Shown piece after piece: positions 8,794 through 21,143 of a stretch of DNA of 55,734 nucleotides. The notes beneath the pieces were generated by a model. The model searched no databases. It was given only the letters and a program-made list of their open reading frames with translations, and had not been told where the DNA came from. Location of the stretch: the IMG/VR virus record IMGVR_UViG_3300033552_000009, positions 1 to 55,734 of that record; one strand, written 5' to 3'. A program made the position numbers and the translations under genes. Source of the DNA: a virus. Every line of letters begins with the position of its first letter. Position 1 is the stretch's first letter.

Positions 8794-9080
8794 TTAAAAC
8801 GTTCTACAAACAACCCCGCGAAGTCTTAGATTTTGACTTTCTATTTGCCGATTTTCTGAAAAGTAGAACCGATTCGTTGGCGTCAGCTTCAGTAACGGCT
8901 GAAGCAGGAATAACTCTTAATTCGGCATTTGTCATTGACGCATCGTTTGTCAAAGTCTTTACGTCAGGCGGGGTAAACGGACAAAAATATCTAGTTACCT
9001 GCATTGCTACAACCGTTGGCGGTAGAGTGCTTGAAGCAGAATTCTTTATTGCTATTAAAGAAATCAGTCGAACAGTGTAG
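8790..9080 (+). CDS. small conserved virion beta-sandwich protein (possible fibre adaptor)
   Basis: ATGA overlap with the upstream stop. The pattern K.P.E.LDFDF...L......S.SV....GIT......I....V.V..SGG..GQKYLVT...TT.GGR..E recurs in small proteins of phage tail-fibre loci. Confidence 0.4.
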   Translation: MIKTFYKQPREVLDFDFLFADFLKSRTDSLASASVTAEAGITLNSAFVIDASFVKVFTSGGVNGQKYLVTCIATTVGGRVLEAEFFIAIKEISRTV

Positions 9081-11061
9081 CTATTTTGGTTCCTTTGATG
9101 TAATCAATTTGGGTTAGCATTTTTGTAGTGTTTGCAATATACCAATCGTAATCAATATCGTCAGGGAATTCGTCAGGCAGATTCATTAACGGCCTAGCGT
9201 TTTCGCTCATTGGTATCTTATTCCCTGATTCAACATATTGGATTTCCCCTTTTTCGCCTTTGGGGTAATACCATCGAATCGTCTTGCCGATATACAAGCC
9301 GTCTTTGTGAGTGGCGCGGGTCAGTTCCCGAACAGTCACAAACTGCGTAATATCCCGGCATTCCCTAATTGTCTTTTCGATTGGCACGTTGCCCACAATC
9401 AACGCTGTCATGGCCTGCAAACAGATAGTCGTTTGTGGGCTTTTGTGGAATCGGAAAATAGCCGTCTTAGGGTCATATCGCGGGTCAAAATAAGCCCCCT
9501 TGCCTTTGATAGAAACCTTGCCGGTTTTTTCGTCTTTCTTAACTGCAATATAGTTGTTAATATCGCGGCTATACAATGCGGTGTATTTGGTTTCTTCAGT
9601 CTTTAGTGACGTTTCGTTTTCCCATTCAGTAATCAATGTCCTAAGCAAAGCATATTGGCTTTTGTGAATGTACTTAACGATACCGTCTGTATTGGCCGAA
9701 ATCACTTTGATATTGTTTATTTCAAGCAATTCAATCAGCATCAAAAGGGCAAGCTGACCGGTCAACGTTACCTGAATCAGCAAGTTAGGCGAATACATGG
9801 CTGACCATCTGGAACCTAGTTTACCGAATGTTCCGTTAATAACAATCTTCAGCGCGTCACTGATAATCTGCTGCTTGTTCCGTTTCGCGGCTAGTCGCTT
9901 TTCAACCAAAAAGTTATAGACCCTTAGAAAGACTTCGCCCATGTTCTTAGGGAACATGCCGGAATTCAGAATCAGGCGCGGGTAATAAGATTCAACGTCA
10001 TCATCAATAATATCGTGTTCTGCGTCAGCCTTATACGATACCGTTTTCTCTTTGCTATGCAAACCGCCCTTGCCAAGCTTATAAACCGTGTCGCCAATTG
10101 ACAGTTCAAACGTTTTCAATTCTTCATTGACAACGGTTCCCTTTTCAGTTACTTCAAAATCCAATTCACAAATACGCTTTAGCGCATCTTGCATAACTTG
10201 CGTTTTGAATTTGATAAACGGGGGCGGCTGATACTTGAATAACCGCCCGCTTTCCACTTCCTCACGCTTAGATCGTTTGCCTGTTATCTTTGATATTTCC
10301 TGCGTAATCACTACTTCAGCAATTTGCGCGTCTGACTTGCTACGCAAATCAAGCCCGTATTCTTTGCCCAACTGAATACGCAATTCGATTTGATCTTTCA
10401 ATTCTTCGTAGATCAATTGCGTATTGTCCAAGTCATTCAGGCAGTAAAGAAAGACGTTGTAAGCTTCCTCTTTGGTCAGCATCCTGTCATGCGGGTAAGG
10501 TAGTTCCTGCATGAATTTGCAATGCAGTTTGGCCGCATATTTCTTCATCGAACCCGATACCGGGCATGGCTCCATAACGTCAATATGATTTACTGACGGC
10601 CTGCTTAAACCGTATTCCTTCAGGATTTCGGATGGGTTTTCACCCTTAATATCGTTTCGGCTGTCGCCAATGATTCGATTGGTTATCTCTTTCAGCTTGA
10701 CGCAATTAGCCCCCTTCAATGCAAAGGCAAGAATAGTCAAATCAAAGTTGTACGAATTGAAGCCGATAAGTAAAAAGCGGTGAAGCATCCATGCGAGAAA
10801 CCTAACGTCTAAATCAATTTCCGGCGTATCTTCAATCGCTACTACCTTGCCGCTTTTTATGTGTTTAAAGCAAATGCAAAAGTAATTGCCGTAGCTTTCG
10901 GCGTCAAATACAAAAGCGTCACCCACATTAACCGCAAACAATTCTTCAGGGGTAAAGAATACAGGCGGTGCATGGGGGCTTTTGATAATCAAATCGCGGA
11001 TTTTCGGCTTTGCTTTTTTGGTTACTGCAAAGCCGTTATCGTCAACAAAAAATTGTTTCAT
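9064..11061 (-). CDS. DNA polymerase with 3'-5' exonuclease, family-B-like motifs
   Basis: Exo motifs are FDAESYG, GFNSYNFDL and YCLNDLD. Polymerase motif A is DDDVESYYPRLIL (DxxSLYPS-like), motif B is KIVINGTFGKLG (KxxxNSxYG-like) and motif C is ISANTDGI (DTD-like). Confidence 0.8.
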   Translation of the reverse strand: MKQFFVDDNGFAVTKKAKPKIRDLIIKSPHAPPVFFTPEELFAVNVGDAFVFDAESYGNYFCICFKHIKSGKVVAIEDTPEIDLDVRFLAWMLHRFLLIGFNSYNFDLTILAFALKGANCVKLKEITNRIIGDSRNDIKGENPSEILKEYGLSRPSVNHIDVMEPCPVSGSMKKYAAKLHCKFMQELPYPHDRMLTKEEAYNVFLYCLNDLDNTQLIYEELKDQIELRIQLGKEYGLDLRSKSDAQIAEVVITQEISKITGKRSKREEVESGRLFKYQPPPFIKFKTQVMQDALKRICELDFEVTEKGTVVNEELKTFELSIGDTVYKLGKGGLHSKEKTVSYKADAEHDIIDDDVESYYPRLILNSGMFPKNMGEVFLRVYNFLVEKRLAAKRNKQQIISDALKIVINGTFGKLGSRWSAMYSPNLLIQVTLTGQLALLMLIELLEINNIKVISANTDGIVKYIHKSQYALLRTLITEWENETSLKTEETKYTALYSRDINNYIAVKKDEKTGKVSIKGKGAYFDPRYDPKTAIFRFHKSPQTTICLQAMTALIVGNVPIEKTIRECRDITQFVTVRELTRATHKDGLYIGKTIRWYYPKGEKGEIQYVESGNKIPMSENARPLMNLPDEFPDDIDYDWYIANTTKMLTQIDYIKGTKIATLFD

Positions 11062-11064
11062 GGC

Positions 11065-12126
11065 TCAAAATGGAATGTCATCTTCAATATCATTTTGCTT
11101 AACCAAAGTTCCTTTAATAACGCCCCTTACTGATTCGTTAAAAAAATAAGCAATATAATCACTAGGGATAAATTGAACCTGCTTAAAATGCTTTTCAATA
11201 AGCTTTAAGAATGACCCGTTAAAGCCCATTCGTTCGGGCAACCCTTTAACTTCATAGGTTGCAACGTTGCCCATATCGCCGGATTTGATAAGGTCAGCGT
11301 CAAAGAAAATCAAACCATTAGCGGAAAACGGCAAAACATGATCTAACCCCTTATACAAATCTTCAGGGGCTGGCGTTGGCGTAAATTCTCGATCAAACAA
11401 TTTCGTAAAGTTTGGATAATCGCATTCAAATAACTGGCTTTTGATAAACGAATCATCTTCAAAATAGAAGGTTGCGCTACGGTCTGAGAAACCGAACCCT
11501 GTTAGATTCTTTGGGCAGTTGGCAACCGCTGCCGCTGCTGCTTTAGGTAAAAGAATTCCGGGCGGTAAGTCAATCCCGTGCCAATATTCGACAAGCACAA
11601 CGCCATTCGTAGCCACTACTGACCCGGATTGAATCAGTACGCCCGCTGCATGGGGTTGCGGTGAAGATTCATTGACAATCGGGTAACAAGCCTTCAGCCC
11701 GTCTTTTAGCGCGTTGGTTGCGTTTGCAACTCGATCATCCGGCATGGGCTTGGGAAAATTGCCCTTGTCAAATTCGTTGTAACAAGGGATTGACGCCGAA
11801 AACTTGCCCGATTTGATTTTGATGGATTTGCCATCACCGGCTTGAACCATCGTAATTTGTTCGGAACATTTCTTCAAAGCGGCTAACAATTGCTTAGTGT
11901 GGGCAAATGCGGTAATTGATTCTTCAATCTTGCATCCTGCCGACATTGCGCCATCCTGCCCGAAAATGATGCCGTCTGCCATTTGGCAAAACGTCTGCCG
12001 GGGTTCGCCTACGTCACGTTGGGCAATGCTGATAAATTCAAGTGCTGCAATAAGGTTTGCTGCACTCGATTCGGCGGCTTTCTCTTTAACTGATTTTCTG
12101 CCTTTGGTAGCCATAAGTTCTTTCAA
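11065..12126 (-). CDS. dnaN: DNA polymerase sliding clamp (DnaN/beta-clamp-like) with SSB-type C-terminal tail EDDIPF
   Basis: VVATNGVVLVEYW compares with E. coli VATDGHRLA, DYPNFTKLF with FPDYRRVLP, and MGFNGSFLKLIEK with IGFNVSYVLDVL. Its size is close to DnaN. The C-terminus is KQNDIEDDIPF. The start is either TTG 12126 (overlapping the upstream TGA) or ATG 12114. Confidence 0.7.
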   Translation of the reverse strand: MKELMATKGRKSVKEKAAESSAANLIAALEFISIAQRDVGEPRQTFCQMADGIIFGQDGAMSAGCKIEESITAFAHTKQLLAALKKCSEQITMVQAGDGKSIKIKSGKFSASIPCYNEFDKGNFPKPMPDDRVANATNALKDGLKACYPIVNESSPQPHAAGVLIQSGSVVATNGVVLVEYWHGIDLPPGILLPKAAAAAVANCPKNLTGFGFSDRSATFYFEDDSFIKSQLFECDYPNFTKLFDREFTPTPAPEDLYKGLDHVLPFSANGLIFFDADLIKSGDMGNVATYEVKGLPERMGFNGSFLKLIEKHFKQVQFIPSDYIAYFFNESVRGVIKGTLVKQNDIEDDIPF

Positions 12127-12359
12127 AAAGGAATTTTCATTACGTGATCTTCACAACCACATACGACAACTGTAACGGGCGGGGTTCCTTTATGCAACCC
12201 GCAAAACGGTATTTCTTCCGTTCCTTTATAATTGTCACAATTTAAACAAGTTTGCCATTGGTCACGTTGAATCAATGTCTTTTGAATCGCCGTGCGGTAA
12301 GTGGCACAGTTTTTGTTATGCTGCTTATTGTTACCGAAACCATCACTATTGGTAGTCAT
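12123..12359 (-). CDS. small Cys-rich zinc-ribbon protein ending in KIPF
   Basis: Cysteine pairs CLNCDNY...FCGLH...VVCGCEDH. It overlaps both neighbouring genes and sits inside the replication operon. Confidence 0.6.
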   Translation of the reverse strand: MTTNSDGFGNNKQHNKNCATYRTAIQKTLIQRDQWQTCLNCDNYKGTEEIPFCGLHKGTPPVTVVVCGCEDHVMKIPF

Positions 12360-13959
12360 AAGATTTCACTTCAGGGTATTTGCAATTCAACCGAACAGTT
12401 ATTTTAGTCGGTTGCCGTAATTCAGATTGCAACTGCAATGCTCTGAATGTTGTTGCCGGGGGGTCAGCGTCATGCCGTTGCCGCCACCAATCGCGGGCTT
12501 TGTGCCGCATAAGATTGCTGGTTGATTCAAAATTAATCCATTCGTCAAACCGGCGCAACCCGCAAAAATAGCCAACTCGCATTGACGGCGGGCTTAACAG
12601 ATTCCCGGCTGCATCTTTTTTCTCATGCAGCGAATAGACGATACGGGATACAGGGAAGATTTCCAATACTTCAGCGTCATCAACCTTCATGACTTCCACG
12701 TTACCGGCGCTACGAAAAATCTTAGGCGCAAAATTAAATTCCATAGCGCAATTGCAGCAAAATCGGGCGCTGGCGTGGTTATATGCCCCGCATGTATCGC
12801 ATATCCTTATGGGGGCTTCACCGGGCGCGCCTGACCCCGGTTTACGCGGTTTAATCGGGTCATTGATGGGGCCGCATCTAAGGACGTTGCCCGCGAAATC
12901 TAAAACAAGGCAATTCGTCTTGCCCGTGTCGGGGCTGATGCGGGTTCCCCTGCCGTACTTTTGAACGTGTTTGCCGGGACTGCAACATGGCTGCATATCG
13001 CCAATAAAATCAATCGGCGGGAAATCGTAGCCTGTTGTCAGTTTGTTGTTGCCCACAATAGCCCGTAGCTGACCGGATTCAAATGCGGCTAGGCGGCTAT
13101 TGTTTTCGGCTGAAGTCAGCTTTGAATGCACGGCGGCTGCTGGAATGCCGAACCCGTTAAGCATTTCGGCAATGTGTTCTGAATGGTTTACGCCTGCCGC
13201 AAAGATCATCCAATGCTGCCGTTCACTTGCATAATCAATTATTTCTTTGCAGGCTTCAAACGTGATATTGGTTTTGTCAACCGCATCTTCAAGCTGTTTG
13301 GCGTTGTATTCGCCGCCTAGAATCTTGACGTTGGATATGTCAAAACGGGTTGCTGTAGGCTTGCCAATCAACGGGGCAAGGTAGCCTTCAGCCACTAGCT
13401 TGTTAAACGCCTGATAGCCTGTCAGGTCATAGCAAACGTCAGTAAACAAACCGTCATCCGTCAATTCCCCTTGCTTCATACGGAACAAGGTTGCGGAAAA
13501 TCCGACAACAACCAAACCCGGATTAATGGCTTTCAGAACAGAAATCGCTTGCGCGTATTGGCTGGCTTGATCTGGTCCGATTAAATGGGCTTCGTCAATG
13601 AAAAGCAAATCCCGATGGCCGAACATTTCAGCCTTTTTAACGCAACTTTGAATATTGCCGTAAATAATAGGATTATAAAAATCCCGCTGCTTTAGTTCGG
13701 CTGAGTTAATGCCTAGCGGGGCATTAGTCCAAATGTTCCGCAACGCCTTTGCGTTTTGTTCAACCAATTTGGAAACGTGAGTTAGCATCATCACGCGCTT
13801 GTTTTGATAATACGTCATTGCTGTATATACAGCCATTGCAATGACTAGGCTTTTACCGGTCCCTGTCGGCATTCCGATTAAGGGGTTGCCGGTTTGGCCT
13901 GAAGTCAAATAGTTGTATAACGCATCATGCGCTTCAACCTGATAATAACGGGGCTGCAT
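12346..13959 (-). CDS. SF2 DEAD/DEAH-box DNA helicase with C-terminal zinc ribbon
   Basis: Motif I is GMPTGTGKSL, motif II FIDEAHLIG, motif III FSATLF and motif VI QKYGRGTR. The zinc ribbon is CDTCGAYNHASARFCCNC. Confidence 0.85.
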   Translation of the reverse strand: MQPRYYQVEAHDALYNYLTSGQTGNPLIGMPTGTGKSLVIAMAVYTAMTYYQNKRVMMLTHVSKLVEQNAKALRNIWTNAPLGINSAELKQRDFYNPIIYGNIQSCVKKAEMFGHRDLLFIDEAHLIGPDQASQYAQAISVLKAINPGLVVVGFSATLFRMKQGELTDDGLFTDVCYDLTGYQAFNKLVAEGYLAPLIGKPTATRFDISNVKILGGEYNAKQLEDAVDKTNITFEACKEIIDYASERQHWMIFAAGVNHSEHIAEMLNGFGIPAAAVHSKLTSAENNSRLAAFESGQLRAIVGNNKLTTGYDFPPIDFIGDMQPCCSPGKHVQKYGRGTRISPDTGKTNCLVLDFAGNVLRCGPINDPIKPRKPGSGAPGEAPIRICDTCGAYNHASARFCCNCAMEFNFAPKIFRSAGNVEVMKVDDAEVLEIFPVSRIVYSLHEKKDAAGNLLSPPSMRVGYFCGLRRFDEWINFESTSNLMRHKARDWWRQRHDADPPATTFRALQLQSELRQPTKITVRLNCKYPEVKSYDYQ

Positions 13960-14843
13960 TAATCGGCCTTGTTAACTGAAATGTGGGCAACGCAACCTTT
14001 AGGAATAAATTCTTCAGGGATGATTGCGTTATGGGCGGGCAAACTGCAATACCATTGTTTATCCGCTACGGGTTGCGCGTACTTGCAAGACCTGCAATTG
14101 ATTTCAACCGGCGCATCTTTAAAGCAAATATCAGCGTAATTGCACATTTTGCAAACAAAATGGGTTGACCTGTCGCTAATTCGATTTGGCAAATGGTCAA
14201 TGTTGATAATCTGAATTGCTTTATCCTTCAGCTTTTCGCCATGTTCATGATCTAAAGCGACAATTTCAACGTGCAAATCCGAATCGTTTTTATTGATATT
14301 CAGATATAAAGCATGGCTAAAGTTGTATATAGGGTCACAACCGTAAACGCACATTTGACCATAATGCACGGGCTTTTCAGCTTCTACGCCATTCTCAAGC
14401 AATTTATTAAACGCTGACCCCGTGCTATTGGTTTTGTATTCGCCCAATACCGGGAAGTCAATACCGTAGCTAGGCGGGAATTTGATAATCGAATCAAGTG
14501 AACCGCCCCCATGACCATTGCCAAAGCTGGTTCGGAATTGTTCGCCATCTTCCGCTTTATCCCAAACCTGAAACCCGGCTTCAGTCAGCCATGTAATAAA
14601 TTTCGGTTCCTGTTCATGGCCTACTTGAAATAACCGTTCTTGTCTGCCGTCATTCTGAGCGGCCTTAACCCATCGAAAGGTATAGTAAATCTTGCGCCAA
14701 CATTGGTCAGCAACTTCCGATGCGCCTAAGTGCCGCCTATGACCGTTTTCTTTATAAAGATTCTGGCAAGCTTTATCTATGTCAGTTAATACTTGCTTGG
14801 CAATAGATTTCCGGTCAATGTTTATGTCGTTTAATTGATTCAT
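13959..14843 (-). CDS. PD-(D/E)XK nuclease, RecB/Cas4-like, with C-terminal Cys cluster
   Basis: GGSLDSII...FPVLGEYKT fits the D...ExK core. The C-terminal CKMCNYADIC....CRSCKY...YC...GC cluster is typical of Cas4-like phage exonucleases. AAGGA precedes the ATG. Confidence 0.65.
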   Translation of the reverse strand: MNQLNDINIDRKSIAKQVLTDIDKACQNLYKENGHRRHLGASEVADQCWRKIYYTFRWVKAAQNDGRQERLFQVGHEQEPKFITWLTEAGFQVWDKAEDGEQFRTSFGNGHGGGSLDSIIKFPPSYGIDFPVLGEYKTNSTGSAFNKLLENGVEAEKPVHYGQMCVYGCDPIYNFSHALYLNINKNDSDLHVEIVALDHEHGEKLKDKAIQIINIDHLPNRISDRSTHFVCKMCNYADICFKDAPVEINCRSCKYAQPVADKQWYCSLPAHNAIIPEEFIPKGCVAHISVNKAD

Positions 14844-15312
14844 ACAATTCCTTTATTTTTCGTTCTTCTTTCTGTTCTTTCTTTTTGCGCCGTCTTACCA
14901 TTATTAGCGCCCCAATAGAAATGAATTGATTCGACACTTCAATTGTCCTAATTAAATCTTCCTTTGATAATTGGCTGATGTTTGCTTTTTCTAATGGCAA
15001 ACCTAACGTATCAGCAAGCCATTGATAGGCTTCAAATCTGGTCATGATTCTTTGCATCCATATTTTGTCGAATGCTTCATGGGCCAATGTTCGGAAAACT
15101 TTTACTTCCCGATTTGCTAAAAGACCTTTCGGTATATTAGTTCCGTAATGGCAACTAACACTTGAACGGCACTTTTTGCAGTAGTAGCACATAGGCCAAT
15201 CGCCCACATTTCGTTTATACAGAACCTTGTTTTCCGCATAAATAACGGCGGGGAATTGGCAAACGTTGCATATAGCTAATGGTTGATTGTTCATAAGAAA
15301 AGAAAGGGGCAT
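14815..15312 (-). CDS. zinc-ribbon phage protein (DUF3268-like)
   Basis: CNVCQ...CYYCKKC zinc ribbon followed by LAHEAFDKIW...FEAYQWLADTLGLP. The start at 15312 (MPLSF...) is preceded by AAGGGGG. Confidence 0.5.
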   Translation of the reverse strand: MPLSFLMNNQPLAICNVCQFPAVIYAENKVLYKRNVGDWPMCYYCKKCRSSVSCHYGTNIPKGLLANREVKVFRTLAHEAFDKIWMQRIMTRFEAYQWLADTLGLPLEKANISQLSKEDLIRTIEVSNQFISIGALIMVRRRKKKEQKEERKIKELYESIKRHKH

Positions 15313-15344
15313 ATAGCCCCCTTCAATCATTTACGAATTACCGC

Positions 15345-16070
15345 TTACTTAGCGCCCCATGCGGGTTTTGCCGCACCGGGGGCCGCGTTTTGCTGCCATC
15401 CTGCGTTAGCAGGGGCAGGGGCCGCTGCTGGCTGTTGGGCTGGCGGCTGATATTGCGCGGGCTGCTGTTGCGTCTGCTCAGGTGCTGGCGCGGCTGGCTG
15501 CTGCCATCCCCCCGCCGCTGGCGCTGCTTGCTGTGCTGGCGGCTGATAGGCCGATGCAGGGGCCGGGGCTGGCGGCATTGGCTGTGCTTGCGAAGGGGCT
15601 TGCGGTGACAAATGTTCTTTGCCGGGTTCGCGGCCATCCATGTAAAAGACCTTGCTGATTTGCGTGAATGGCGTGACTTGTTCGCCTGCCGCCTGCCTTG
15701 CGTTTTGCTGGTCAGTCAGCTTTTGGTTTGTCACTTCGCCAATGAAACATTGACCTTCAAACTGCCGGGTATCGCTGATTTGGGTATGGCCCAAATTGCA
15801 GGCGTAAGCCAACGCGGCCAACTGATTGTGGGCAATTTCAACAGTCTTTGCCTGCTGATGGTACAGGTTGATGCGGTAATCGCCGCTAGCGCCTGCGTTC
15901 GGACCTTCGATGATGGTCACGCCGAATTTCAAATGCCCGCCTTGTTCATCTTTGTTCGGCACAATTGCCGTTTCAGTGATGCGGAACGGATGACGGCCAA
16001 GCGGCAATTGTGCCGAACCTTGAACGGGGTTGTAATTTGCGGGAACGAATGCGTTTTGAAGTAAAGTCAT
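15345..16070 (-). CDS. phage ssDNA-binding-like protein (DUF669-like core) with Q/P/A-rich disordered C-terminal linker
   Basis: The roughly 150-aa N-terminal globular part occupies the position usual for DUF669 SSBs, between the Sak4-like and helicase genes. The roughly 90-aa tail is PQAPSQAQPMPPAPAPASAYQPPAQQAAPAAGGWQQPAAP... Confidence 0.5.
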   Translation of the reverse strand: MTLLQNAFVPANYNPVQGSAQLPLGRHPFRITETAIVPNKDEQGGHLKFGVTIIEGPNAGASGDYRINLYHQQAKTVEIAHNQLAALAYACNLGHTQISDTRQFEGQCFIGEVTNQKLTDQQNARQAAGEQVTPFTQISKVFYMDGREPGKEHLSPQAPSQAQPMPPAPAPASAYQPPAQQAAPAAGGWQQPAAPAPEQTQQQPAQYQPPAQQPAAAPAPANAGWQQNAAPGAAKPAWGAK

Positions 16071-16095
16071 TTGGATATATTCCAGTTATTGAAAA

Positions 16096-16722
16096 TTAGA
16101 TTTCGCGGGTTGCGGATTCAATAGTGATAAGGTTTTTAGGGTAATCGCATCCTTTCAAAGTTACTTTCATGCCCATCATCGTAGCTTTTTCAAGCTCACG
16201 CTGTAGATTATCTATTGCGGTTTGAACTTTGTCTTTCTGTTCTTTGTAAATGTCTGTAACCTTAGTTTCGCCAAATTTAACGTCACTGTTAACTAACGTT
16301 TTAAACATTGGGGTAACGTAAGGATTATTCGGAATAGGGGTATGGTTAAATTCCTGCTTTCTTATGCTAAAGCAATATTCTTTAATTAATTCATTTACGA
16401 TATTGCTTGTGGCAACTTCAAATTTAACCCCTCTGTTTCTGGTTAACGTTTCTTTAACTATAGTTGAAAACCGTTCGCTTTTCAGCAATTGGTCAAATCC
16501 AACTGAAACAATCAATTCCCGTTCGTCTGCCGATAAAACAGGGTGCTTAGGCGCGTCATCCCCCCATTTTTTGAATTGGTAATGACCGTAATACCTTACA
16601 AACGTATCGGCCACTTCTTCAGCGATTTCATATACTTTTTTCTTGCCACTACGCAATGAAAGAATGTCCTGAATTAACAGGCGTACCGCTTGATTTTCAA
16701 ATAACTCTTTTATGCTGTTCAT
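16096..16722 (-). CDS. hypothetical replication-module protein
   Basis: 208-aa ORF, start overlapping the upstream stop. No motif recognised. Confidence 0.6.
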   Translation of the reverse strand: MNSIKELFENQAVRLLIQDILSLRSGKKKVYEIAEEVADTFVRYYGHYQFKKWGDDAPKHPVLSADERELIVSVGFDQLLKSERFSTIVKETLTRNRGVKFEVATSNIVNELIKEYCFSIRKQEFNHTPIPNNPYVTPMFKTLVNSDVKFGETKVTDIYKEQKDKVQTAIDNLQRELEKATMMGMKVTLKGCDYPKNLITIESATREI

Positions 16723-17390
16723 GACATTGCCTTTGCAAACATTTTGGTCAAATTAGGTTCTTCGTATTCGTCAAGCTTACCGCTACGGTTACGAGCCATG
16801 AATTCAAATGTTTCTTTGGTCCTGAAACATACAGTCGGTGCAACCATGCCGGGAATCTGGCTGAGTGCCATGTAGAGTATATCATCATACTTATGCGGTA
16901 TCTTGATATTCAAGTCATTGCCGGGAAAGAACGGCTGATACTTTGCGGCAACCAATGCCCGTTTAGCAACCAAATAGATATGCTTTTGGGGCATAAAATA
17001 AAGCTTATCAGCTATTTCATTGATTTCGGTTGCCATTTCGCCGTAGGCTTTCAGCCCGTGACTAAACAACTTCAGCTTTTCGCTAAGGATGATTTCAGCC
17101 CCGTGACTGATTGAATCCCAACAAAAAGTATCGTACTTTTTAGCTTCAGCCGATGTATGCAACCAAACAAAGAATTCACGAATCTTTGGGGCGGTATAGG
17201 CTTCAAAGGCCGGAACGTTACTGCCGCGCATGGAAAGCAGGCCGGGTTCGCAGACAAGCATAACGGGGCGCGGGGCGGTATTGATGACCGGGGTTTTGCC
17301 TACCCCCGGCGCACCATAGACAAGGGATTTCACCCCGTAGAAACTAGCCAGTTGACCCGCTGGCTTCAGGTCACGTTCATTCATGGGCAT
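16719..17390 (-). CDS. Sak4-like RecA-fold ATPase (AAA_24 family, single-strand annealing/recombination)
   Basis: Walker A is LVYGAPGVGKT near the N-terminus. Its size of about 220 aa and its position next to the SSB-like, helicase and nuclease genes fit the family. Confidence 0.7.
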   Translation of the reverse strand: MPMNERDLKPAGQLASFYGVKSLVYGAPGVGKTPVINTAPRPVMLVCEPGLLSMRGSNVPAFEAYTAPKIREFFVWLHTSAEAKKYDTFCWDSISHGAEIILSEKLKLFSHGLKAYGEMATEINEIADKLYFMPQKHIYLVAKRALVAAKYQPFFPGNDLNIKIPHKYDDILYMALSQIPGMVAPTVCFRTKETFEFMARNRSGKLDEYEEPNLTKMFAKAMS

Positions 17391-17580
17391 TCACCATTTT
17401 GCTGATAACAATGGAATCATCGTCAGAATCTTCCGTTTTGACGGTAAAGCCGATTTCGCGCAAGTGGCGGGCCAATTCAGCAATCAAAATCGGCTTACCA
17501 CTTCCAGTAGGACCGGTCAGCGTCAGCGTAATCGCTTTGCCATAACGGCAACATACTTCAACAACTTGATTGGTTTTCAT
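17377..17580 (-). CDS. 67-aa protein with Walker-A-like GPTGSGKP motif
   Basis: LTLTGPTGSGKPILIAELARHL. It overlaps both neighbours and is too short for a full NTPase domain. Confidence 0.5.
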   Translation of the reverse strand: MKTNQVVEVCCRYGKAITLTLTGPTGSGKPILIAELARHLREIGFTVKTEDSDDDSIVISKMVNAHE

Positions 17581-18017
17581 TTGGGAACCTTTGGGGTCAT
17601 AAGGGAAAGGGACGGCGTACCGGGGGAAATGGTCACAACTTCGTCAAGAATCGCCCGCATTGCTTCAGGCATTGCTTCATATTCGGTTTTTGACAGTTCG
17701 GGTTTCCAACGAATCACACGATTAACAATTAATTCGCCTGCTTCACCCATTTTTTCGATTCGGTCAAGCGCACCGTCAAGTTTCTTTTCATCGAGTTTGT
17801 AATTCTCTTTGAATACCGCTTTCAGGCCGAAACCCTTGCCCAAATCGTAATTGACCGTGCCGGAATCAGGCGGGGTTTCGTAGCAAAGCGTAAGGACTTC
17901 AATGCGGGCGGCTGCTTCAACCTCTTTCCAATAGGCCAATTGGGATTGGGCCGTTGACCATTTCATGATTGCGGTATCGCGCTTGGCTTCAACCGTTTCA
18001 ACTGGTACGTTTTCCAT
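17577..18017 (-). CDS. hypothetical protein (possibly Gp157-like by position)
   Basis: 146-aa helical protein upstream of the Sak4-like gene, the position where siphovirus Gp157-family genes usually sit. The sequence match was not verified. Confidence 0.45.
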   Translation of the reverse strand: MENVPVETVEAKRDTAIMKWSTAQSQLAYWKEVEAAARIEVLTLCYETPPDSGTVNYDLGKGFGLKAVFKENYKLDEKKLDGALDRIEKMGEAGELIVNRVIRWKPELSKTEYEAMPEAMRAILDEVVTISPGTPSLSLMTPKVPK

Positions 18018-18089
18018 TTTGCTTTCCTTAATTGAATCCCGGTAACTGCCGGGTCAGTGATTGAATTCTACAACAAAGAATTCAATGCG

Positions 18090-18533
18090 TCAACACTTTT
18101 TGCCACCATCCTGCAAACGATTTGCAATCTTATGATCTGGCCGTTGCGCGTTGAATTCCATTTTGGCAACAACGATTTCGCCAAGCGGAATTTTCATTGC
18201 CCCCGCCAAATCGTGAATGCGGATAAGGGCGTCGGCAAGTTCAACGTCAAGATTTTTGTATTGCGGCAACTTGTCATCATTAAGGTTTTTGCGGAAACCT
18301 TCCATGCCTTCCGAAACTTCCGTAACTATCAGCATGAGTTTTTCGGGTACACTGAATTGAAGTTCTTTATAGGGAACGTCATGCGATTCGGGTGTGCTGT
18401 CCCATCCGGTTTTTAGGTTTGTCCACCATCCTGAAGTTTTCGCCGCGCCATGACAAAGGGCCGTCAGGCGGTCAACGGCGGCAACCGTAGCTTGAGTGCC
18501 ACGGGTCAAAACAGATTGTGCGTCAAAGGTCAT
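18090..18533 (-). CDS. mazG: MazG-like nucleoside triphosphate pyrophosphohydrolase
   Basis: KLMLIVTEVSEGMEGFRK, ELADALIRIHDLAG and KMEFNAQRPDHK match the all-alpha NTP-PPase EExxE/D pattern. Confidence 0.7.
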   Translation of the reverse strand: MTFDAQSVLTRGTQATVAAVDRLTALCHGAAKTSGWWTNLKTGWDSTPESHDVPYKELQFSVPEKLMLIVTEVSEGMEGFRKNLNDDKLPQYKNLDVELADALIRIHDLAGAMKIPLGEIVVAKMEFNAQRPDHKIANRLQDGGKKC

Positions 18534-18619: not shown

Positions 18620-18829
18620 ATGCAAAACATTCCTACGTCATGGCTGTACGAAACAAGCCTGCTTTTACGCAACCGGCCTAGTCATATCAGGCTTAGGACT
18701 ATTGCCGCATCGTGCAAAGTATCAACCGCTTGGCTGTCGAAACTTCAAAACGGCAAGCTGCTTACAGCCCCTGTTGAAAAGGTTCAATCGGTCAATACAT
18801 GGTTGAAAGACGAGAAAAATGTTACATGA
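18620..18829 (+). CDS. small helix-turn-helix DNA-binding protein
   Basis: IRLRTIAASCKVSTAWLSKLQNGK has an HTH-like pattern. It is the first gene of the rightward arm of the divergent promoter region. Confidence 0.5.
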   Translation: MQNIPTSWLYETSLLLRNRPSHIRLRTIAASCKVSTAWLSKLQNGKLLTAPVEKVQSVNTWLKDEKNVT

Positions 18830-21143
18830 TATTCCCGATGAAATGAAAGCTTACCCTCAATGGGTAATGTGGCGATACGAGGAAACCGATGGGGAAAAGC
18901 CTACTAAGGTTCCCTACAATGCCAACAACGGCAAACATGCAAACGTCAATGTTCCGGGTACGTGGTGCAGCTTCGATCAAGCAACGCATACGCTAGCCAA
19001 CCTGCCGCAATTTTATTCGGGCATAGGCTTCGTGCTGACCAAAGATGACCCGTATCTTTTCATTGATCTTGACGCGCCAAAATCAGACGATCAAGCGGAA
19101 ATCAATTCTGTAATGGACAGGCAACGTACCGTTTACGAAGAATTTGATTCATACGCCGAACTATCCCCTAGCGGCAAAGGTCTGCACATCATCGTCAAAG
19201 GTGACATTCCTTCAGGCCGCAAACGGTCAAGCATTGAAATTTATTCAGCCCAACGATTCATGACCATGACCGGTAACGTTTACCGGCCTACCCCGATTCG
19301 GGAATACAACGAATTGATTAATAGCCTATGGGCGCAAATGGAAGGCGGCAAGTCTAAGACCATTGGCGGGGCTATGGGGTTTGACCCTGAAACGTCAACT
19401 GACGCGCAAATTATCGAATGGGCAACTAACGCAACCAATGGCGAAAAATTCCATGAGTTATTCATTAACGGCAACTGGAAACGTTATTACGAATCGCAAT
19501 CTGAAGGCGATTTTGCTTTAGTTAATATCATTGCTTTTTACTCAAATAGCAGGATTCAGGTTCAACGAATCTTTTTGCTGTCCAAGCTAGCCGAACGTGA
19601 GAAATCACGGGCGCAATACCGTATTGATTACATGCTTAACCGGTGCTTTGACCGTAAGCTACCGCCGATTGATCTAAGTCAATTGAAGCATGGAATCCTA
19701 GCGGCATTGGCGAATCAACATAAGAACGTTGCAATGACCGAAACCCCTACAGCGCAAGAATCGTCATACGACTTCAGCCCGCCCACTGTCAACCCATACA
19801 CTCTGCCGCCCGGTCTAACCGGGATGATTGCCCAATACATTTTCACCCAATCGCCACGGGCAGTTCCTGAAATCTCGCTGGTTGCCGCGTTGGGGCTTAT
19901 GTCAGGCATAGCGGGAAGGGCGTACAACGTTTCAGGTAGTGGCTTGAATCAATATATTTTATTGCTTGCGCCAACTGGTACGGGTAAAGAAACTATTCAT
20001 TCAGGCATTGCAAAATTAATGAATGCGGTAAAGGTCAACATTCCTAACGCATTTGATTTTATTGGACCGTCTGACATTTCTTCAGCCCCTGCCCTTGTCA
20101 AATATCTGGCTAACGTTTCACCCCGATTCGTTTCTATTGTGGGCGAATTCGGCATTGCCTTAAAAAATATGTCGGGTCCAAAAGCACCGCCGCATTTGAC
20201 AATGCTACGGCGAATCATGCTTGAATTGTTTGGCCGTTCGGGGCGTGGTGCAGTTCTACAGCCCACAATCTACAGTGACAAAGATAAGAATACAGCGCCG
20301 GTTTTAAGCCCCGCTTTTTCGATGATTGGCGAATCTACACCTGAGCGGTTTTACGAAGTGTTAGACGAAGATATGGTTACTGAAGGATTTCTTCCGCGAT
20401 TAACTTTGGTCGAATACAACGGCCCCCGGCCTGCCGCCAATGACAACGCATCTAAAGCGGTTCCCGCTGATAGGACCGTTAAGCTATTGTCTGACCTATG
20501 CAGCAACTGTAATGCGCTTGATTCTCAGAATCAGGTTATTGACGTTGCGCTTGACGATGAAGCAACCGATATATTTAAGCAACTCGATAAGTTTTGCGAT
20601 ATGAAGATCAATGCTTCAGCCCGCGAAGTACGGCGCAATCTTTGGACCCGTGTAAACCTTAAAGCCATGAAATTAGCGGCATTGGTAGCCGTTGGGAATC
20701 ATCTTTACAAGCCTGAGATTGATGCAGCGGTTGCAATGTGGGCAATCAATATCGTACTGGCTGACGTTTATAGTTTGCTAAACAAATTTGATGCCGGTGA
20801 CATAGGTTCAAACAGTGAAGAATTGAGCCAAATGGTTAAGGCCGCTAACATAATCGGTGAATATCTGGTTAGGTCATGGGCTGAGATTGATGGATACAAA
20901 ACCGGAACCCAATTGCAGCATAAAGAAAAAGTAGTGCCTTACGCTTATATCTACAAAAGATTATCGCAAGTAGGGTCATTTACTAAAAGCAAAATGGGAA
21001 CTAGGATAGCCATTGCCAATACCATTAAAACATTGGTTGAACGTGGCGACTTAATAGAGCTATCAAGAATGGATTGCAAGACAAAATTTCATACGTCAGG
21101 AATTTTGTATATTGTTGCAAATCCTTCAGCCTTTGGAATTTAA
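18819..21143 (+). CDS. primase-polymerase (AEP) fused to P-loop NTPase/helicase (DUF3987-like)
   Basis: AEP motif I is LFIDLD and motif II is SPSGKGLHI. The C-terminal half carries the Walker A LLLAPTGTGKE. Confidence 0.75.
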   Translation: MLHDIPDEMKAYPQWVMWRYEETDGEKPTKVPYNANNGKHANVNVPGTWCSFDQATHTLANLPQFYSGIGFVLTKDDPYLFIDLDAPKSDDQAEINSVMDRQRTVYEEFDSYAELSPSGKGLHIIVKGDIPSGRKRSSIEIYSAQRFMTMTGNVYRPTPIREYNELINSLWAQMEGGKSKTIGGAMGFDPETSTDAQIIEWATNATNGEKFHELFINGNWKRYYESQSEGDFALVNIIAFYSNSRIQVQRIFLLSKLAEREKSRAQYRIDYMLNRCFDRKLPPIDLSQLKHGILAALANQHKNVAMTETPTAQESSYDFSPPTVNPYTLPPGLTGMIAQYIFTQSPRAVPEISLVAALGLMSGIAGRAYNVSGSGLNQYILLLAPTGTGKETIHSGIAKLMNAVKVNIPNAFDFIGPSDISSAPALVKYLANVSPRFVSIVGEFGIALKNMSGPKAPPHLTMLRRIMLELFGRSGRGAVLQPTIYSDKDKNTAPVLSPAFSMIGESTPERFYEVLDEDMVTEGFLPRLTLVEYNGPRPAANDNASKAVPADRTVKLLSDLCSNCNALDSQNQVIDVALDDEATDIFKQLDKFCDMKINASAREVRRNLWTRVNLKAMKLAALVAVGNHLYKPEIDAAVAMWAINIVLADVYSLLNKFDAGDIGSNSEELSQMVKAANIIGEYLVRSWAEIDGYKTGTQLQHKEKVVPYAYIYKRLSQVGSFTKSKMGTRIAIANTIKTLVERGDLIELSRMDCKTKFHTSGILYIVANPSAFGI

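Follow-up and report, generated by a model that had tools for sequence, protein, structure and literature searches.

Why a phage sliding clamp should end in the docking peptide of a bacterial SSB is the question raised by the locus described here. The window, by which we mean the whole analysed stretch of 55,734 nucleotides (virus record IMGVR_UViG_3300033552_000009), encodes a protein that a preliminary description took to be a DnaN-like clamp ending in EDDIPF, next to a cysteine-rich protein that also ends in IPF. The C-terminal peptide of bacterial SSB (SSB-Ct) is a hub peptide for chi, ExoI, RecQ, PriA, RNase HI, DnaG, RadD and other proteins. When the replication module of the window was compared by megablast with 50,697 phage records, nothing matched; the window thus has no close sequenced relative among those records.

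The clamp and its replication module

The features of the window on which the analysis is based are the following.

9064..11061, minus strand: family-B-like DNA polymerase, 665 aa (phrog_1252, E 2e-194)
9067..9087, minus strand: C-terminal peptide K-I-A-T-L-F-D of the polymerase, resembling a beta-clamp-binding motif (homologue C-termini)
11065..12126, minus strand: DnaN-type sliding clamp (phrog_947, AF2 and Foldseek)
11068..11112, minus strand: flexible C-terminal tail of the clamp, residues 339-353, …LVKQNDIEDDIPF (AF2 pLDDT, homologues)
11068-11085, minus strand: SSB-Ct-like tip EDDIPF, the last six codons of the clamp (sequence, homologues)
12123..12359, minus strand: small four-Cys (Zn-ribbon-like) protein, 78 aa (phrog_23504, E 3.4e-12)
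12126..12137, minus strand: K-I-P-F tip of the Zn-ribbon protein (homologue comparison)
12346..13959, minus strand: RadD-like SF2 helicase with a Zn ribbon, 537 aa (PDB 6jde RadD, E 1.1e-44)
13959..14843, minus strand: Cas4-family exonuclease, tipless in the window (phrog_1990, E 5.7e-89)
15345..16070, minus strand: DUF669-type SSB, 241 aa, without a bacterial SSB-Ct (phrog_6015 'single strand DNA binding protein', E 2.9e-40)
18819..21143, plus strand: primase/helicase (phrog_3022, E 9e-228)

The clamp gene is a maximal ORF of 353 aa with a TTG start at 12126. The true start is probably the ATG at 12114, which gives 349 aa, because the nearest homologues open with MAT…. The protein ends in …VKQNDIEDDIPF, and its TGA stop occupies positions 11065-11067. 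The ORF matches the PHROGs family phrog_947, 'DNA polymerase processivity factor' (E 1.6e-56). No match to it was found in Pfam, and the NCBIfam model TIGR00663 reached E 1e-4 and 21 bits, far under its cut-off of 138. A profile of the clamp family retrieved the H. pylori beta clamp from the PDB sequences (E 2e-7). The clamp was modelled by AF2 as a monomer with a pLDDT of 91.3 and a pTM of 0.86, and the top 50 Foldseek hits of the model are bacterial beta clamps throughout, with E about 1e-19 and approximately 360 aligned columns; the TM-score against E. coli beta is 0.72-0.76. The predicted structure contains three tandem domains with beta-clamp topology. The DnaN-like fold claimed for this ORF is thus borne out by AF2 and Foldseek, and at the level of the predicted structure the product of ORF 11065-12126 is confirmed as a DnaN-type three-domain beta-clamp. 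It has the fold of bacterial DnaN and a partner polymerase with a QLxLF-like end. The differences from bacterial DnaN are an identity of only about 14%, below the Pfam and NCBIfam thresholds, a C-terminal extension with an SSB-Ct-like tip, and the lack of an encoded cognate loader.

The polymerase gene begins 3 nt past the clamp stop. Besides phrog_1252, its product is matched by the NCBIfam Pol II models (E 1e-9) and by Pfam DNA_pol_B (E 0.009), both under the curated cut-offs; by these profile matches the downstream polymerase, previously assigned to family B, is family-B-like. The protein ends in …GTKIATLFD, which had been loosely compared with clamp-binding peptides. The comparison gains weight from the homologues: [LFMI]F is found within the last three residues of 58 of the 60 homologous polymerases, with the consensus K-x-[QA]-[IL]-[LS]-F-F (cf. 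QL[SD]LF). The C-terminal motif of the polymerase is clamp-binding-like and conserved.

A scan against PHROGs revealed no AAA+ clamp loader of the delta/gamma type among the window ORFs of at least 200 aa, in line with the earlier statement that none is encoded. With its primase/helicase, the phage furnishes its own priming. The DUF669-type SSB ends in …KPAWGAK, a family-specific tip: a tryptophan is present within the last five residues in 46 of 49 homologues, and the consensus is PPWGQR.

The SSB-Ct-like tip and its carriers

In the AF2 model, the final beta strand of the clamp stops at residue 338. The tail that follows has a pLDDT of about 62-64, compared to more than 95 in the fold, and reaches just 10-15 residues or so past it. 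The sequence …NDIEDDIPF runs straight into the stop codon, which places the tip at the extreme C-terminus. A survey of phage DnaN homologues found the tip in 90 of 120 clamps, with the consensus DE[YF][ED]DDIPF. Among these 90, P at position -2 is invariant (90/90), followed by F at -1 (88/90), D at -5 (81/90) and D at -4 (76/90). The E. coli SSB-Ct reads MDFDDDIPF (PMC10238739, PMC3290774), and the clamp tip family, which has an aromatic residue at -7, agrees with it over the last seven residues. The tail extends 11-49 aa past a conserved RG in the clamp homologues, and its linker sequence is variable. The tip holds the bacterial consensus though the clamps share merely 23-40% identity. The tail is terminal, flexible in the AF2 model and strongly conserved in the homologues.

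The clamp tip resembles the bacterial SSB-Ct in its position at the extreme C-terminus, in the D-D-I-P-F sequence with acidic residues upstream and an aromatic residue at -7, and in its variable flexible linker (PMC10238739, PMC3290774). It differs in being borne by a beta-clamp, and in relatives by a helicase, a Zn-ribbon protein or a nuclease, and not by an OB-fold ssDNA-binding domain. Judged by its predicted structure, which has no OB-fold core, the clamp is not an SSB, just the bearer of an SSB-Ct-like peptide.

Among the 443 window ORFs of at least 35 aa in six frames, only the clamp and the adjacent Cys-rich gene have [ILVM]P[FYW] ends. An acidic [IVLM]P[FY] end occurs in one of the 9,609 other ORFs of 81 related sequences, and this one is a Cas4-family exonuclease of the replication module. 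A chance origin of the two IPF-type ends is excluded. All sequence statements of the preliminary description, including the EDDIPF end of the clamp, hold.

The small protein encoded at 12123-12359 contains six cysteines and ends in …HVMKIPF. It has no match in Pfam, and its AF2 model is poor (pLDDT 55.7, pTM 0.30). A single-sequence search with the 78-aa protein retrieved one relative only, and an alignment-based search was used to collect the homologue set. In alignments of 30 and 45 sequences the four cysteines C38, C41, C53 and C69 (C-x2-C … C … C) are invariant; P60, P61 and P77 are also invariant, and F78 is nearly so. The IPF end noticed in this neighbour proved to be a family trait, as 91 of the 92 database homologues terminate in [IV]P[FY]. 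In 88 of the 92 members, D or E is present at -4. This does not apply to the window (…HVMKIPF), L001 (…HCFLIPF) and L093 (…HTMKIPF): the Zn-ribbon tip is shorn of acidic residues in the clade of the window, whose clamp also bears a tip. The Zn-ribbon gene begins within the helicase gene, with an overlap of 14 nt at the helicase stop, and ends just ahead of the clamp start. The overlapping position behind the helicase gene is kept in every case, including phages with the clamp 6 kb off, such as Vibrio phage 1.117, RHEph05 and BcepGomr.

Over 75 loci, the tip is borne by the clamp only in 36, by the Zn-ribbon protein only in 30, by both in three, including the window, and by neither in six. The mutual exclusivity of the two is pronounced (Fisher p = 9e-12, shared ancestry ignored), and the clamp tree requires at least seven changes of the clamp-tip state. 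Where the clamp is tail-less, the tip is found on the Cys-rich protein encoded after the helicase. In the Queuovirinae, the RadD-like helicase carries it, with the ends …DLDDDIPF in PaMx25, …DDPDYVPF in SLUR76 and …DFDDDIPF in JenK1. The latter phage was isolated on E. coli K-12, and the end of its helicase is identical to the last eight residues of the host SSB. The Cas4-family exonuclease is the bearer in one case, L046 (…LDSDIPF). Typically there is exactly one strong tip per genome; where there are two, one is without acidic residues. The clamp-specific tip implied by the preliminary description is therefore not supported. Since the tip does not belong to the clamp as such, any mechanism must work from each of these carriers.

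Near-identical phages, with polymerases and helicases each 99% identical, differ in the tip (EYEDDIPF and EEDDNFPPF), which means that the tip changes without a matching change in those proteins. The lineages L040, L048, L051 and Acinetobacter phage IMEAB3 are tipless; they keep the clamp, and no loader is present in the sequence examined. The existence of such lineages implies that the tip is not indispensable. The earlier statement that no sliding clamp with this tip is known stands for the searchable literature, in which we found no account of an SSB-Ct tip on a clamp, a helicase or a Zn-ribbon protein. It does not stand for the databases, since many deposited phage 'replicative clamps', including those of DLP1, Kopi, RcThunderbird and others, carry the tip unremarked. 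The siphophages concerned include E. coli K-12 phages (Halfdan, JenK1, Seuratvirus group) and the Septimatrevirus phages of Pseudomonas and Stenotrophomonas. In Halfdan, the tip of gp53 reads AQHDFDIPF.

Candidate ligands of the tip

We propose that the clamp tail is an SSB-Ct mimic uncoupled from SSB, which recruits host SSB-interacting proteins, most likely the clamp loader via chi; we consider the chances of this reading to be about even. The host docking peptide (…DDDIPF-COOH) would have been split from SSB and grafted onto other phage replication proteins. The phage ssDNA would be coated by the DUF669-type SSB with its other tip (…PWGQR), and because this tip differs, host proteins seeking the SSB-Ct would not be drawn to the phage forks. 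The host-type tip would be displayed, at the end of an acidic and flexible linker, by one component of the replisome. In the window this is the clamp; relatives would instead use the Cys-rich protein, the helicase of RadD type or the Cas4-family nuclease. The displayed tip would bring at least one host SSB-interacting protein to the phage replisome. The likeliest client would be the clamp loader of the host, reached via chi: a DnaN-type clamp and a polymerase that ends in a clamp-binding-like motif are common to all these phages, and none encodes a loader.

A peptide able to function on any of four carriers would, in the simplest case, be directed at something other than these carriers. The private tip of the phage SSB, set against a clamp tip that stays at the bacterial consensus, would also count for a host ligand. 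From these sequence patterns we infer that the ligand may be a host protein, namely chi. The isolate host genera listed (the ten commonest and those in the table rows) all belong to the alpha-, beta- and gamma-proteobacteria. These are classes in which chi is found (PMC3290774). Among the host proteins, RNase HI and ligase are probably not the principal target, for the Queuovirinae possess an RNase H and a ligase themselves and nevertheless retain the tip. We rejected the possibility that the tip is a clamp-binding motif aimed at the cleft of the phage clamp, since it would be pointless on the clamp and since the polymerase ends in a separate, conserved motif of the QLxLF type.

Several observations bear on the part played by the host loader. 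The tipless lineages keep the clamp yet show no loader, which counts against it. Chi sits on the collar of the loader, far from the clamp-binding face, and the chi-SSB contact left clamp dynamics unaltered in cryo-EM (PMC11436948). With chi so distant and the tail extending so little beyond the fold, the window clamp is unlikely to be tethered to chi and held by the same loader at once. In E. coli, holC is dispensable (PMC3290774).

The tip could instead dock within the phage replisome, and the helicase is an obvious candidate. The window helicase is a homologue of E. coli RadD (YejH), an SSB-Ct-binding SF2 helicase (NF053632 heli_RadD_YejH, E 2.5e-62, under the curated cut-off). In E. coli RadD, the SSB-Ct docks in a pocket of RecA-like domain 1 and stimulates the ATPase (PMC10238739). 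The phage proteins have retained much of this pocket: its hydrophobic residues are kept across 70 phage helicases, R51 is R in 68 of them, and the equivalent of R145 is K in 66. The preserved hydrophobic part and some basic residues make an internal ligand possible. Docking in the pocket might activate the helicase or couple it to the clamp and the polymerase; in other lineages, the link would run via the Zn-ribbon protein as an adaptor, a role suited to a gene that invariably follows and overlaps that of the helicase, or in cis or between subunits when the helicase bears the tail. We nevertheless regard this reading as unlikely. Of the three key arginines that frame the RadD pocket, R21 and R49 lack conservation in the phage proteins, and no correlation of pocket conservation with tip presence was found, the tipless L040, L048 and L051 keeping the pocket equally. 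In the window itself, the positions of R21, R49 and R145 are occupied by T19, N53 and V, and the pocket is degenerate (V145, Y46, A44, L20) though the clamp tip is intact. The tip also switches from IPF to FPPF next to a 99% identical helicase. The Queuovirinae homologue, unlike E. coli RadD, bears the peptide instead of or besides binding it, which is awkward if the tip is a helicase-binding element. In phage T7, the gp4 helicase and the gp2.5 SSB both have acidic tails with a terminal Phe, which share the same basic patches of the polymerase as binding site, and a comparable docking of the tip on the phage polymerase or another phage replication protein is improbable to the same degree. Helicase and clamp are natural partners of a polymerase, and the 3-nt spacer couples the polymerase gene translationally to the clamp gene. 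Other replisome proteins of the family have conserved tips as well (…LFF in the polymerase, …PWGQR in the SSB); with several such peptides, tip-mediated assembly seems to be the style of this phage family. Against this stands that an internal contact would be free to drift, as the phage SSB tip did, while this tip stays bacterial, to the point of matching the host SSB in JenK1, and that tips differ between phages with 99% identical polymerases.

A further reading, to which we give slightly less credence than to either internal ligand, is that of a decoy, in which the tip competes with the host SSB for ExoI, RecJ, RecQ, PriA, chi and others and the carrier is irrelevant. Its effect would be blunted host nucleases or replication, or modulated defence systems that sense ssDNA metabolism. 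Four different carriers suit a peptide that needs display alone. In the Zn-ribbon protein, the invariant residues (the four Cys, two Pro and the Pro of the tip, next to a near-invariant tip Phe) would agree with a scaffold reduced to display. A phage SSB-like protein with FDDDIPF has been proposed to perturb ExoI-dependent processes (bioRxiv 10.64898/2026.04.29.721553). The confinement of the tip to proteins of the replication module argues against a decoy, the single exception among the 9,609 other ORFs being itself in the module. One strong copy per genome, with any second one lacking acidic residues, suggests a stoichiometric over a titrating role, and phage ssDNA under a tip-less SSB would presumably already escape the SSB-interacting proteins. 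That the DDIPF end is a neutral tail without function is hardly conceivable. The tipless lineages would fit it, but the extreme positional conservation against a variable linker, the compensatory distribution over carriers and the near-zero background effectively refute it.

Relation to known systems and significance

The tails of T7 gp4 and gp2.5 likewise represent one acidic, aromatic-ended docking peptide common to several replisome proteins, the helicase included. They differ from the tip described here in that they are not I-P-F and bind the phage polymerase, whereas the peptide of the present family is the host SSB consensus. Closer in sequence is Bas52_0087, a phage SSB-like protein with an FDDDIPF tip that is proposed to engage host SSB-interacting proteins (bioRxiv 10.64898/2026.04.29.721553). 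Proteins of this type also display the host SSB-Ct; they are OB-fold SSB-like proteins, in contrast to the non-SSB replisome proteins that act as carriers here.

The proposed host recruitment can be extended to a general statement, which we put forward only tentatively and consider doubtful in its full form: a large family of siphophages of alpha-, beta- and gamma-proteobacteria may use the SSB hub peptide as a portable label that hops between carriers and captures the host clamp loader via chi for a loaderless clamp and a family-B polymerase.

In bacterial genome maintenance the SSB-Ct serves as the central peptide for recruitment, and it has hitherto been treated as a property of SSB. This phage family suggests that a virus can shift it onto other parts of the replisome. 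It would supply natural separation-of-function material, with one peptide placed on a clamp, a helicase, an 80-aa adaptor or a nuclease. For annotation, the IPF end is a simple marker of the otherwise 'hypothetical' phrog_23504 family, and for therapeutic phages of Pseudomonas and Stenotrophomonas the tip points to a putative, conserved peptide-pocket contact of a druggable kind. The finding also bears on how loaderless DnaN-like phage clamps reach DNA, a question approachable in E. coli K-12 with Halfdan, JenK1 and the Keio mutants holC, holD, sbcB, recQ, rnhA, priA and radD. If true, the capture of chi would be a previously unrecognised viral takeover of a host replication factor.

The clamp and its replication module

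The window has a densely packed replication module on the minus strand at 9,064-18,533. The remainder of the 55.7-kb window carries terminase, portal, protease, capsid, tail and lysis genes, so that it represents an essentially complete siphophage-like genome.

Replication genes of the window, the minus-strand module in transcription order
Minus strand: MazG-like pyrophosphatase (first)
Minus strand: Sak4-like annealing ATPase (second)
15345-16070, minus strand: DUF669-type SSB (third)
Minus strand: DUF3268 protein (fourth)
13959-14843, minus strand: Cas4-family exonuclease (fifth)
12346-13959, minus strand: SF2 helicase (sixth)
12123-12359, minus strand: 78-aa Cys-rich (Zn-ribbon) protein (seventh)
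11065-12126, minus strand: 353-aa ORF, the clamp (eighth)
9064-11061, minus strand: 665-aa polymerase (ninth and last)
18819-21143, plus strand: primase/helicase

The C-termini given in the preliminary description for the clamp, the small ORF and the polymerase were re-read from the window and are all correct. The clamp ORF ends in …VKQNDIEDDIPF and the small ORF upstream of it in …HVMKIPF, each followed by a TGA stop. The polymerase gene begins 3 nt beyond the clamp stop, and its product ends in …GTKIATLFD. The maximal clamp ORF (353 aa) begins at TTG 12126, within the stop region of the Zn-ribbon gene. Because homologues with 86-89% identity begin with MAT…, the start is probably ATG 12114 (349 aa); both codons lie in window 12112-12126, minus strand. 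The reported absence of a clamp loader also holds: no window ORF of at least 200 aa matched one, and apart from the Sak4-like protein, the SF2 helicase and the primase-helicase these ORFs include no ATPase.

No Pfam family matched the clamp, and TIGR00663 (dnaN) reached only E 1e-4. In PHROGs the clamp was assigned to phrog_947, 'DNA polymerase processivity factor' (E 1.6e-56), and a profile built from 63 clamp homologues matched solved beta clamps with E 2e-7. The AlphaFold2 model obtained from the 63-homologue alignment (pLDDT 91.3, pTM 0.86) was compared with the PDB by Foldseek. The top matches were all bacterial beta clamps, including those of E. coli, H. pylori and Stenotrophomonas, aligned over the full length with TM 0.72-0.76 and about 14% identity. 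The DnaN fold proposed for the ORF 11065-12126 is thus confirmed at the level of the predicted structure. In the model the final strand ends at residue 338, and the pLDDT is about 62 over residues 339-353, as would fit a flexible tail.

The SSB-type tip and its carriers

Among 443 six-frame ORFs of the window, ends of the type [ILVM]P[FYW] occur only in the neighbouring clamp and Cys-rich genes. A survey of clamp homologues revealed a P-F or P-Y end in 90 of 120. These 90 tipped clamps all have P at position -2, with F(-1) in 88, I(-3) in 73, D(-4) in 76 and D(-5) in 81; E or D stands at -6, and 42 have Y or F at -7. Their consensus, DE[YF][ED]DDIPF, matches the C-terminal peptide (SSB-Ct) of E. 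coli SSB, MDFDDDIPF (PMC10238739, PMC3290774), over the last seven residues, up to the aromatic at -7. Between a conserved RG and the tip lies a linker of 11-49 residues with weakly conserved sequence, and the tail-less homologues end 6-12 residues past the RG. A fixed tip on a variable, poorly conserved linker is the hallmark of a functional peptide at the end of a disordered tether. One sub-lineage (loci L007 and L045; database proteins P0016, P0018, P0038, P0041 and P0043) ends in …EEDDNFPPF instead of …EYEDDIPF. The polymerases and helicases of the two kinds of phage are about 99% identical; host switch, tail recombination or simple tolerance are possible origins of this variant.

The comparison set comprised 80 IMG/VR loci that contain clamp homologues, together with regions of 13 phage isolates. 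The conserved gene order is helicase, small Cys-rich ORF, clamp, polymerase. It occurs in two main configurations: a long tipped clamp with the Cys-rich ORF missing, or a short tail-less clamp with a Cys-rich ORF of 63-111 aa ending in D-x-[DE]-[IV]-P-[FY]. Where the upstream region is intact (75 loci), the tip is found on the clamp only (36), on the Zn-ribbon protein only (30), on both (3) or on neither (6); this exclusivity gives a Fisher p of 9e-12, uncorrected for phylogeny. A neighbour-joining tree of the clamp core shows at least seven changes of clamp-tip state, with a second tipped clade (L053, L069, L074, L077, L078) nested within the tail-less clamps. At the border of the two large groups stand the window and its relative L001, which carry both tips; L093, a more distant relative outside this tree, has both tips too. 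The Zn-ribbon tips of the 'both' clade (…MKIPF, …FLIPF) have lost the acidic residues and kept I-P-F. The IPF end of the Cys-rich protein, noted earlier in the window, is retained as [IV]P[FY] in 91 of 92 database homologues. C38, C41, C53, P60, P61, C69 and P77 are invariant in this family, and F78 is near-invariant.

Isolated phages with the compact order differ in configuration as well. In Halfdan (E. coli MG1655) the clamp lacks a tail and gp53 ends in …HDFDIPF, the Zn-ribbon protein of Lucius (Sphingomonas) ends in …EDKIPF, and tipped clamps are found in DLP1 (Stenotrophomonas) and RcThunderbird (Rhodobacter). Queuovirinae have a tail-less clamp and a deazaguanine gene cluster between clamp and helicase; here the RadD-like helicases of PaMx25, SLUR76 and JenK1 bear the tip, at the end of an acidic C-terminal extension some 60-110 residues long. 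The JenK1 helicase shares its final eight residues with the SSB of the phage's host, E. coli K-12. In Vibrio phage 1.117 (Queuovirinae; …FHIPF) the tip is on a Zn-ribbon protein directly after the helicase, as it is in RHEph05 (…GDIPF) and BcepGomr (…STIPF), which are outside Queuovirinae and show the same clamp-helicase separation. The fourth carrier is a Cas4-family exonuclease homologue in locus L046, where a tipped Zn-ribbon protein is also present; a scan of 9,609 other ORFs for acidic [IVLM]P[FY] ends gave this exonuclease alone.

Tipped helicases and nuclease
L092 7567-9453, minus strand: PaMx25 helicase, ends …YADLDDDIPF
L091 13854-15830, plus strand: SLUR76 helicase, ends …VDDPDYVPF
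L097 7024-9027, minus strand: JenK1 helicase, ends …LPPDFDDDIPF
L046 6625-7650, plus strand: Cas4-family exonuclease homologue, ends …DFVLDSDIPF

No tip was found in L040, L048, L051 and Acinetobacter phage IMEAB3; in the IMEAB3 locus analysed, clamp and helicase are tipless and the peptide is absent throughout. At the Zn-ribbon gene position IMEAB3 encodes gp18 (L085 6526-6939, plus strand), whose 137 aa include an N-terminal CxxC…CxC and no IPF tip. The SSB-type tip is present on the window clamp as described, but it is not specific to clamps.

Two further observations concern the loci themselves. Lokivirus and Septimatrevirus have a second small conserved ORF of 100-118 aa ending in …NYLQAAI(S/T)… (Halfdan gp54, L081 6721-7023, plus strand; DLP1, L082 6505-6861, plus strand), which separates the clamp from the helicase or Zn-ribbon gene; the window has no such ORF. 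L093 and L094 (GCA_025965375.1, JAOPXB010000357.1) represent a 56-kb contig with the same phage replication and tail module inside a MAG labelled Marmoricola sp., an actinobacterium; this label should not be taken as the host, because the contig has the appearance of a whole phage genome that was binned with the MAG.

Terminal peptides of the polymerase and the phage SSB

The polymerase family ends in …K-x-[QA]-[IL]-[LS]-F-F, with [LFMI]F within the last three residues in 58 of 60 sequences. This C-terminus, …[QA][IL]x[FL]F(F), resembles the bacterial beta-clamp-binding motif QL[SD]LF, and the window end …KIATLFD (9067-9087, minus strand) is a variant of it. Such conservation supports the earlier suggestion that the polymerase end may be a clamp-binding peptide. 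The DUF669 SSB has no SSB-Ct and ends in a conserved tip of its own, …(A/P)PWG(Q/A)(R/K), with W within the last five residues in 46 of 49 homologues. In the window it reads …KPAWGAK (15348-15368, minus strand) and follows a Q/P/A-rich low-complexity linker. It is presumably a phage-private docking peptide.

Candidate ligands of the tip

We propose that the tip would recruit one or several host SSB-interacting proteins to the phage replisome: the phage's own SSB could not do so, and a tip on another replisome protein would. Since the four carriers include the helicase or the clamp itself, the ligand is most simply a party outside them. A host ligand is favoured over a phage one because the tip keeps to the bacterial consensus in clamps that share no more than 23-40% identity, the JenK1 tip equals the host SSB tail, the phage SSB has a private tip, and EYEDDIPF and EEDDNFPPF differ despite the near-identical polymerases and helicases. 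The chances that the ligand is a host SSB-interacting client are about even. Binding to the phage polymerase or to some other phage protein, in the manner of the acidic Phe-terminated tails of T7, is unlikely in the light of these points. The phage RadD-like helicase is an equally improbable partner. The window helicase is a RadD (YejH) homologue (PDB 6jde, E 1e-44; NF053632, E 2.5e-62, under the curated cut-off) with an internal Zn ribbon at residues ~385-405. In E. coli RadD, R21, R49 and R145 frame an SSB-Ct pocket, and binding stimulates the ATPase (PMC10238739). A set of 70 phage helicases conserves the hydrophobic residues of the pocket, with K at position 145 in 66 and R at position 51 in 68; the equivalents of R21 and R49 are unconserved, pocket conservation is equal in tipless lineages, and the window pocket is degenerate (V145 rather than K, Y46, A44, L20), which is unusual compared with its 69 relatives. 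A decoy function of the tip has a slim chance of being correct.

Within the host-client reading, the host clamp loader, reached through chi, is the leading candidate, as no loader was found among the window ORFs of at least 200 aa. The isolate host genera named among the matches listed are all alpha-, beta- or gamma-proteobacteria. Chi is present in these three classes (PMC3290774). Queuovirinae encode their own RNase H and ligase and have nonetheless kept the tip. The assignment to chi specifically is tentative and rather doubtful: chi sits far from the face that binds the clamp, and its contact with SSB left clamp dynamics unaltered (PMC11436948); the window clamp has a short tail; E. coli can do without holC (PMC3290774); and tipless lineages occur.

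SSB-Ct-mediated recruitment and the acidic tails of T7 are known principles. A full-text literature search found no published description of an SSB-Ct tip on a phage clamp, helicase or small Zn protein. The nearest report concerns an OB-fold SSB-like phage protein with FDDDIPF (bioRxiv 10.64898/2026.04.29.721553), whereas the present carriers are a clamp, a helicase, a Zn-ribbon protein and a nuclease. In deposited genomes the clamps are labelled merely 'replicative clamp' and the Zn-ribbon proteins hypothetical. The preliminary interpretation stands with respect to the clamp, its tail, the missing loader and the polymerase motif, but not in treating the tip as a clamp feature. As a feature the tip is broader than a clamp tail alone: a portable SSB-Ct module, shifting between clamp, Zn-ribbon protein, helicase and nuclease.
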